Shown here piece by piece: positions 6,358-6,510 of a stretch of 10,286 bases of DNA. Source of the DNA: an uncultured archaeon. Lineage in GTDB: Archaea > Asgardarchaeota > Lokiarchaeia > Sigyniarchaeales > SOKP01. The notes under the pieces are model-generated. The model was given only the letters and a program-made list of their open reading frames with translations, made no database searches and was not told where the DNA came from. Position numbers and translations under genes: made by a program. Every line of letters starts with the position of its first letter. The first letter of the stretch is position 1. The DNA is taken from assembly GCA_964447495.1 (NCBI GenBank), contig CAYUTF010000015.1, positions 1 through 10,286 of the forward strand. Reading direction: 5' to 3'.

Positions 6358-6510
6358 TCATTGCTCTCCTAAAGCTTCCTTAATTTTATTTAACTCCTCC
6401 ATTCGTTTCTTTTTTTCTTCTTCGCGCTTCTTTAATTCTTGTTCATCAACCTTCTGGAGAGAGACACCCTTTTTAATCTCATTCTGCAATTCTTTATCGA
6501 TTGGAGCCAT
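6358..6510 (-). CDS. 50-aa microprotein with WH2/actobindin-like motif and charged helical tail (not in ORF track)
   Basis: Hand translation: MAPIDKELQNEIKKGVSLQKVDEQELKKREEEKKKRMEELNKIKEALGEQ*. It is more GC-rich than the flanking intergenic DNA, has SD-like AGGTAA at 6525-6520, an in-frame stop just upstream that fixes the start, and a T-tract downstream. Confidence 0.8.
   Translation of the reverse strand: MAPIDKELQNEIKKGVSLQKVDEQELKKREEEKKKRMEELNKIKEALGEQ

Follow-up and report, generated by a model that had tools for sequence, protein, structure and literature searches.

A stretch of 10,286 nucleotides (nt; positions 1 to 10,286 of contig CAYUTF010000015.1, assembly GCA_964447495.1) from an uncultured Asgard archaeon of the order Sigyniarchaeales, here termed the window, encodes a microprotein of 50 amino acids (aa) between the genes for a RimI-like acetyltransferase and pelota. 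The microprotein gene is real and is under strong purifying selection, and its family has been found, within the genomes searched, in one Asgard order only. The protein corresponds to one copy of a ~45-aa module, comprising a short amphipathic helix, a G-x-x-L-x-K-V stretch and a conserved helix rich in glutamate, lysine and arginine, which also occurs in tandem arrays and in fusions with several other domains. A first-pass annotation, made from the letters of the window, had described it as a hidden, stand-alone WH2/actobindin-like protein and had proposed that it binds monomeric actin, an interpretation which is partly supported here. That the microprotein is a WH2/thymosin-like module binding Lokiactin is a tentative reading to which we give slightly less than an even chance. 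It is doubtful that the free, arrayed and fused forms of the module together make up a previously undescribed WH2/thymosin-type system acting on Lokiactin within this order, with a buffering peptide, nucleating arrays and forms wired to profilin, GTPase, LRR and RHH domains.

The microprotein is encoded by an ATG-initiated, minus-strand open reading frame (ORF) in the ORF listing of the window (Table 1). The location between rimI and pelota, residues 5-22 as originally quoted and the charged tail are all present at 6358-6510. Searches were made in 41 genomes of the one order, comprising the window's own and 40 relatives. An open frame of 50-64 aa, sharing 67-88% identity, occurs in single copy in all 24 other genomes of the same genus, one of the frames being cut at 34 aa, while weaker matches in short frames are found in three further families of the order. 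Among 190 pairs from 20 loci, the mean proportion of nonsynonymous differences (pN) is 0.104 and that of synonymous differences (pS) 0.636. The ratio of nonsynonymous to synonymous substitution rates (dN/dS), expected in the first-pass annotation to lie below one, has a median of 0.14 in 107 pairs, synonymous sites being saturated in the remaining 83. A chance ORF is ruled out by the frame conserved in 24 of 24 genomes together with a pN far below pS.

The family extends well beyond these genomes. With a profile of 21 members, at least 542 database proteins are retrieved at E <= 0.01 (8000 candidates scored). The 120 matches listed are 49-51 aa long. Where a name is given it is mostly 'hypothetical protein', from metagenome-assembled genomes labelled Promethearchaeota, Lokiarchaeota or the like, and in a few cases a plainly automatic JGI name. 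The proposal that such a gene would be routinely missed by gene callers is contradicted by these homologues, many of which have been called. A second profile was built from 51 representatives, which are members of clusters at 50% identity, and gives a match at E <= 1e-4 in 71 of 301 genomes of the phylum: the window's own genome, 63 of the 68 others of its family and all seven of a second family of the order. A word-based search for longer homologues returned two matches, both uninformative.

In the AlphaFold2 model of the microprotein (21-sequence alignment; mean pLDDT 81.6), residues 6-13 and 23-49 are helical and residues 14-22 irregular; this predicted layout of a short helix, an extended stretch and a long helix supports the first-pass annotation. 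The motif residues singled out beforehand are retained in 38 to 49 of the 51 representatives, namely L8 (38), I12 as I or L (49), G15 (46), L18 (49), K20 (43) and V21 as V, I or L (45). Conservation is no lower in the charged helix, where E39 is present in all 51, R36 in 50, L40 in 49 and K33 in 48. As read from i+3/i+4 spacing, a single face of the long helix would carry a basic stripe of R29, K33 and R36 that continues into L40, I43 and L47. Approximately half of the residues are charged, 13 of them acidic, and the net charge is close to zero. An independent globular fold is unlikely, and a fold search with the 50-aa model returned no match at E <= 10.

WH2 motifs consist of an amphipathic helix of two to three turns and, at a constant distance from it, an extended stretch of the form L-[KR]-[KR]-[VT]; in the actin monomer the helix occupies the cleft formed by subdomains 1 and 3. 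The microprotein resembles WH2 (PF02205; N-WASP, Spire) in its predicted succession of an amphipathic helix and G-x-x-L-x-K-V, with a spacing identical to that of N-WASP in the HMMER alignment. It differs in that the first basic residue of LKKV is a glutamine and a polar residue replaces the second leucine of 'LL', in the addition of a 27-residue conserved charged helix, and in that the window protein falls below every Pfam threshold. Beta-thymosins are free peptides of ~40-50 aa that sequester G-actin, thymosin beta-4 capping the monomer on both of its faces. The microprotein resembles the beta-thymosin, ciboulot and actobindin repeats (PF01290) in its occurrence as a free peptide of ~45-50 aa or as tandem repeats of ~46 aa, as well as in the order of N-terminal helix, LKKT-type stretch and C-terminal helix, the latter as modelled for the microprotein. 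Its C-terminal helix, which is of the E/K/R type, is much longer, however.

Several searches point weakly to WH2 proteins. Of all Pfam families compared with the 51 representatives, WH2 reaches the lowest E-value, and it is matched at E <= 1 in five; P0154 (family E 1.0e-9) is the sole one above the curated cut-off of 23.1 bits, scoring 23.7 bits, and the other four have E-values of 0.007-0.089. When the 21-member profile was compared with the 177,635 sequences of the PDB, the top match was 3m3n_W, a triple-WH2 construct of N-WASP, with an E-value of 3.4e-4 that covers the whole sequence, three weak repeats being aligned to residues 8-24. A second N-WASP entry follows at E 0.53. Among 1.84 billion representative sequences, the same profile gave 71 matches at E <= 1e-3, nearly all archaeal-type relatives, and retrieved P0186 at E 9.8e-5, a protein in which Pfam identifies WH2 in four stretches (3.4e-23). 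Aligned by hhalign to six WH2 repeats of P0186, which were delimited by a plain regular expression, the family obtained a probability of 65.9 and a score of 22.3, a test that is partly circular in that P0186 was chosen for its match. None of 200 column shuffles reached this score (mean 7.35, maximum 16.0), and a score of 11.0 was obtained when the alignment was reversed. For two members (57% identical), the named clusters that lie closest in the ESM Atlas are thymosin clusters, in which 52% and 26% of the proteins carry Thymosin; their scores of 0.84-0.87 lie below the 0.9 line and serve as leads only.

When five genomes that contain a multi-repeat homologue were searched in all six frames with the Pfam WH2 model, seven matches at E <= 10 were obtained. 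Three lie inside the ~1.5-kb multi-repeat gene, where they are the sole match in two genomes (G036 and G032) and the second in another (G038); the five genomes are kin, and the three count as about two independent events. The top match in G038 was considered as a gelsolin and rejected, as it sits in a 217-aa protein of unknown kind, and the match in G035 falls within an unnamed 140-aa open frame. Taken as a whole, the likeness to WH2 appears statistically real but borderline, and does not of itself settle homology.

Copies of the module are also encoded in longer proteins. Approximately ten tandem copies with a period of ~46 aa make up proteins of 479-497 aa in the second family of the order, each repeat consisting of the short helix, a G-x-x-L-x-K-[VI] stretch and the charged helix. 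In 36 proteins of ~250-300 aa the module is joined to an N-terminal domain; here it is located C-terminally and precedes an additional, unassigned domain of ~55 aa. The N-terminal domain of one of these, P0172, is modelled with a pLDDT of 88-94 over most of residues 1-130, and its best matches are the profilins of Loki- and Odinarchaeota (5zzb_A, E 9.9e-9, TM score 0.85; 5zza_P, TM score 0.88). The top five PDB matches are all chains of four such profilin entries (E 9.9e-9 to 1.3e-7, TM scores 0.77-0.88), with Roadblock ranking only 33rd. The Pfam Profilin model scores below its cut-off on this domain (21.6 versus 25), and PF00235 is assigned to two of the 36 members in a precomputed table. 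The fold of the N-terminal partner is, as modelled, that of profilin.

In the window's own family, the module is additionally fused to LRR domains, with or without an added RHH domain, and to RHH domains in either order (L068, L072, L073, P0176 and P0184), and one protein combines a Ras/Roc-family GTPase, an RHH domain and two modules (Table 1). As judged from these architectures, the module is mobile within the order. Eukaryotic WH2 motifs occur singly, in tandem and joined to many domains, and the module shares this range of forms. Tandem WH2 motifs also characterise the actin nucleators Spire, Cobl and the bacterial VopF/VopL, with which the ~10-repeat proteins have in common an array of motifs and the RHH-flanked forms a possibly dimerised one. 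The ~46-aa period is longer than in those nucleators, since the unit includes the charged helix, and nucleation by the archaeal proteins is purely an inference.

A search with the profile of the profilin fusions shows the two parts to be encoded apart in the window's genome, the profilin-like genes being distinct from that for the module. The same profile finds the microprotein through its module part (E 1.4e-7). Two profilin-like paralogues are encoded in this genome, both without the charged helix. They share a C-terminal helical extension, the start of which is much like the N-terminus of the microprotein, and one of them adjoins a gene for a 306-aa GTPase-like protein. That the profilin-like protein and the module are joined in certain genomes and encoded apart in others is a classic hint of cooperation between them.

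The window's genome encodes four actin-family proteins (an actin gene lies at L031:1498-2640, minus strand) as well as gelsolin-domain proteins, and Lokiactin is 99-100% identical across the genus. The stretches that form the binding cleft are presumably retained in this Lokiactin, when compared with the eukaryotic actin sequence. Actin Asp25, a contact of the WH2-like motif of gelsolin, is reported to be conserved in the Loki actins (PMC9433394). We infer actin as the partner of the module, the geometry of binding and the effect on polymerisation. The free peptide, disordered or loosely helical on its own, would bind a Lokiactin monomer as a WH2 or beta-thymosin motif does. Its short helix would occupy the hydrophobic barbed-face cleft that separates subdomains 1 and 3, and L-x-K-V would run along subdomain 1 beside an acidic patch, while the long helix would turn its basic and then hydrophobic side to a higher part of the monomer or to a protein of the profilin-like type. 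Proteins with one module would buffer or hand over actin monomers, and the ten-module arrays, the RHH-dimerised and the GTPase-coupled forms would gather several monomers and may act as nucleators or regulated assembly factors.

Besides the circularity of the hhalign test, a number of observations weigh against binding to actin. At E <= 10, the window protein is matched by neither the WH2 nor the thymosin model of Pfam, and the WH2 model misses it when run over the window's whole genome. Position 19 is not basic, being glutamine in the window protein and alanine, lysine or glutamate in the family. The best-conserved part of the module is the charged helix, which is absent from WH2 motifs, and through this helix 12 of the 51 representatives match DUF3006 and seven the N-terminal coiled coil of H-NS, more in either case than match WH2. 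The matches in the six-frame scan score no better than noise matches in the same genomes. No significant PDB match was obtained with a profile of the N-terminal half, for which a DEK fragment ranks first (E 0.18) and N-WASP third (E 1.3), nor with the 51-member profile, for which designed helical proteins come first and Spire (E 0.15) and N-WASP (E 0.24) third and fifth, residues 5-22 being aligned. P0166, a eukaryote-type, Ki-67-like protein of 762 aa with FHA, PP1-binding and two SAP domains, carries ~12 tandem motifs of the type L-R-x-x-I-x-x-G-x-x-L-x-x-V and matches the family profile at E 1.2e-7, better than the true WH2 protein P0186, its Pfam WH2 match being weak (0.0021); the WH2-like pattern may therefore be unspecific to actin binders. 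The commonest fusion partner, RHH, is not a cytoskeletal domain, and no actin-related gene adjoins the microprotein gene in the loci examined. Finally, none of the 225 genomes of other families of the phylum matched the 51-member profile, a count that denotes not found rather than absent in view of the fast divergence of short proteins. The window protein belongs to no curated Pfam or NCBIfam family, and the Pfam Thymosin model matches neither it nor ten relatives at E <= 10, nor any of the 51 representatives at E <= 1. The comparison with WH2 drawn in the first-pass annotation is supported by the conserved motif positions, the predicted layout, several independent searches that point weakly to WH2 or thymosin and the fusion to a profilin-fold domain in relatives, but not by the Pfam WH2 and thymosin models or by two PDB profile searches.

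Many of the same observations would be accommodated if the module were a general protein-protein interaction or oligomerisation helix-loop-helix with a partner other than actin, its likeness to WH2 being convergence of a short pattern. We regard this principal alternative as somewhat unlikely. The module is promiscuous, occurring in four RHH architectures, with LRR, Ras-like GTPase and profilin-like domains and in ~10-fold arrays, and its partners might be signalling proteins of the profilin-like or GTPase type, or else regulators with RHH domains. The weak Pfam matches are mostly to coiled-coil or charged-helix families such as the two named above, designed helical proteins head the PDB matches of the 51-member profile, similar motifs recur some 12 times in the Ki-67-like protein, and L26, L40 and L47 as well as R29, R36 and I43 fall on a heptad when the spacing is read in that way. 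With half of its residues charged and lysine or arginine at the heptad core in mid-helix, however, the microprotein is ill-suited to a stable coiled coil. Moreover, it is encoded by the sole module-bearing gene in the window's genome, so that a partner from the module family itself is excluded there, and the recurrence of WH2 entries from both PDB and Pfam on the N-terminal stretch is left unexplained. Binding of the module to Lokiactin remains the reading that we prefer.

The sequences flanking the microprotein gene contain the elements that had been reported for it, namely a Shine-Dalgarno (SD)-like word, TATA-like boxes and T-tracts. Words of the GGAG, GGTG or GGT type recur at SD distance before the start codon in 19 related loci. 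Oligo-T runs act as terminators in archaea; since the DNA is A/T-rich (G+C 20-28%, and 20-35% over the window), TATA-like boxes and T runs are expected by chance and prove little on their own. Spacers of 107 and 137 nt part the gene from its two neighbours.

Table 1. Location of the microprotein gene, the parts of its module, flanking elements and module-related genes at other loci. Positions without a locus prefix refer to the window.
Feature	Location	Strand	Remarks
Microprotein coding sequence, 50 aa (one copy of the ~45-aa module)	6358..6510	-	ATG 6510-6508, TGA 6360-6358
Residues 6-13, predicted short, two-turn amphipathic helix	6472..6495	-	AlphaFold2 model; I4, L8 and I12 share a face, as read from the spacing
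Residues 15-21, G-x-x-L-x-K-V, predicted non-helical	6448..6468	-	WH2-like 'LKKV' position
Residues 23-49, predicted long, conserved E/K/R-rich helix	6364..6444	-	AlphaFold2 model and conservation in 51 representatives
SD-like word	6517..6525	-	AGGT at 6525-6522, 12-15 nt 5' of ATG
A/T-rich TATA-like stretch, candidate promoter element	6531..6546	-	weak evidence, intergenic G+C ~20%
Second A/T-rich TATA-like stretch, candidate	6588..6596	-	read from the minus-strand sequence
Candidate archaeal terminator	6323..6341	-	T5 (6341-6337) and T8 (6333-6326), 17-35 nt past stop
Pelota, downstream neighbour	5147..6220	-	Pfam eRF1_1, eRF1_2, eRF1_3
GNAT / RimI-like acetyltransferase, upstream neighbour	6618..7061	-	Pfam Acetyltransf_1, 6.2e-12
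Ten-repeat proteins	L021:2009-3448; L022; L023; P0121; P0160; P0183	- (L021)	P0183, 359 aa with eight copies
Ras/Roc-family GTPase + module + RHH + module, 352 aa	L070:2727-3782	-	Pfam Ras 1.5e-32; RHH_1 21.8 bits
Profilin-like paralogues, 201 and 213 aa	L106:1894-2499; L107:1832-2473	-; -	window's own genome, contigs C27 and C5

The location of the gene bears on a further alternative, in which the microprotein would be a small translation or ribosome-rescue factor that is co-regulated with pelota and the RimI-like acetyltransferase. In addition to the arrangement in the window, pelota adjoins the microprotein gene in 19 of 19 and GNAT in 17 of 19 other loci of the genus, and the same order is retained in three of six loci of other families, where pelota is only 38-44% identical. 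In the other three of these six loci, however, the gene is situated elsewhere, beside unrelated genes. At 21 loci of other families of the phylum, pelota adjoins a radical-SAM gene (14) and/or a GNAT gene (5) with no microprotein-like ORF, and a synteny-based search for diverged copies beside pelota at these loci found none (best E 0.94). As the cluster is present there without such an ORF, it is the older, and the microprotein gene was apparently inserted into it. The two spacers, with their own A/T boxes and T runs on both sides, likewise speak against co-regulation, no ribosomal or translation family is matched in Pfam or NCBIfam, and the fusions are not to translation domains. We therefore consider a role in translation very unlikely.

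Least probable of all is a nucleic-acid-binding, SAP-like helix-loop-helix that assists the fused RHH DNA-binding domains, for which the repeated RHH fusions (RHH_1 above its cut-off of 20.5 bits in L070, NikA-like or DUF6290 elsewhere), the non-significant DEK match of the N-terminal profile and the conserved basic stripe R29-K33-R36 can be cited, and against which stand the lack of a Pfam SAP match in any family scan and a net charge near zero with 13 acidic residues, unusual in a DNA binder. A relationship to SAP (PF02037) by way of P0166 was also rejected, as the profile matches this protein at residues 220-498 only, outside its SAP domains at 525-553 and 602-636.

Several other genes of the window merit mention. 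A 146-aa protein (2782-3222, minus strand) is encoded in 39 of the 41 genomes searched and comprises a helical N-terminal part, a proline/glycine-rich run of variable length and a near-invariant C-terminal S-L-R-G-x-I-M-x-E-L-K-x-L-F-x-K-R. The helix at its C-terminus is similar to the first, longer helix that the module has when fused to LRR or RHH domains, and the combination of a poly-proline run with an amphipathic helix recalls the logic of WASP and VASP. As a second WH2-like element it was rejected, with no Pfam WH2 match among eight members at E <= 10, and a profile of its C-terminal motif found no relevant match in the PDB. The pelota, radical-SAM and GNAT genes (4077-8205; loci L117-L137) form an old, conserved cluster. 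At the 21 loci of other families, the neighbour of pelota is the 383-aa radical-SAM gene in 14, GNAT in five and either of the two in 16, and 8 nt of the window (7054-7061) are common to the radical-SAM and GNAT genes. An Elf1-type zinc ribbon protein is encoded at 363-944 on the plus strand (Pfam 2e-19, residues 2-75); it is far longer than the Pfam domain, with an acidic, coiled-coil-like C-terminal extension of ~115 aa. Three minus-strand ORFs, at 953-2623 (556 aa), 3365-3994 (209 aa) and 8922-9749 (275 aa), match no Pfam family at E <= 0.001.

WH2-like elements have been described in Asgard archaea in another context. The linkers of Asgard two-domain gelsolins carry the WH2-like motifs LVDV, LRRV, LKHV and LKDV (PMC9433394, PMC7444086, bioRxiv 10.1101/2025.11.30.690169), and such L-x-x-V motifs touch actin in crystals (PMC9433394). 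The module has in common with them an L-x-x-V in an Asgard protein; the gelsolin motif consists of four residues between two domains of a folded gelsolin and, unlike the module, has no free amphipathic helix, separate gene or repeat. In Leishmania, a profilin is described whose WH2-like insertion contributes to the binding of actin (PMC10907219). This trypanosomatid profilin and the profilin fusions of relatives both combine profilin with a WH2-like element in one polypeptide; the former does so through an internal loop of ~20 residues, the latter through a C-terminal module, which in the window's genome is a separate gene. The four-residue linker motifs of two-domain gelsolins are the sole WH2-like Asgard elements in the literature searched. 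No free or tandem WH2/thymosin-like Asgard protein is described in that literature, subscription journals and supplementary tables lying outside its scope. On present comparisons, a module of the WH2/thymosin-like type that adds a conserved helix and is specific to one order of Asgard archaea would be a new form within a known type.

If the module does bind Lokiactin, the free, tandem and fused WH2-like forms would represent a third class of regulator, and the first based on a short linear motif. With a length of 50 residues, the microprotein is within reach of chemical synthesis. RPEL proteins in animals couple the actin monomer pool to transcription, and were the wider system to hold true, the RHH forms could even provide such a coupling in these archaea. 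Should the partner not be actin, the module would still constitute an unnamed, widespread and mobile domain of the order, with at least 542 short homologues and several fusion architectures. A true system would imply that regulated actin assembly by means of short linear motifs originated, or was invented anew, outside the eukaryotes, and would bear on a question of eukaryogenesis, namely whether monomer buffering and motif-based nucleation are pre-eukaryotic or evolved convergently in one archaeal order.

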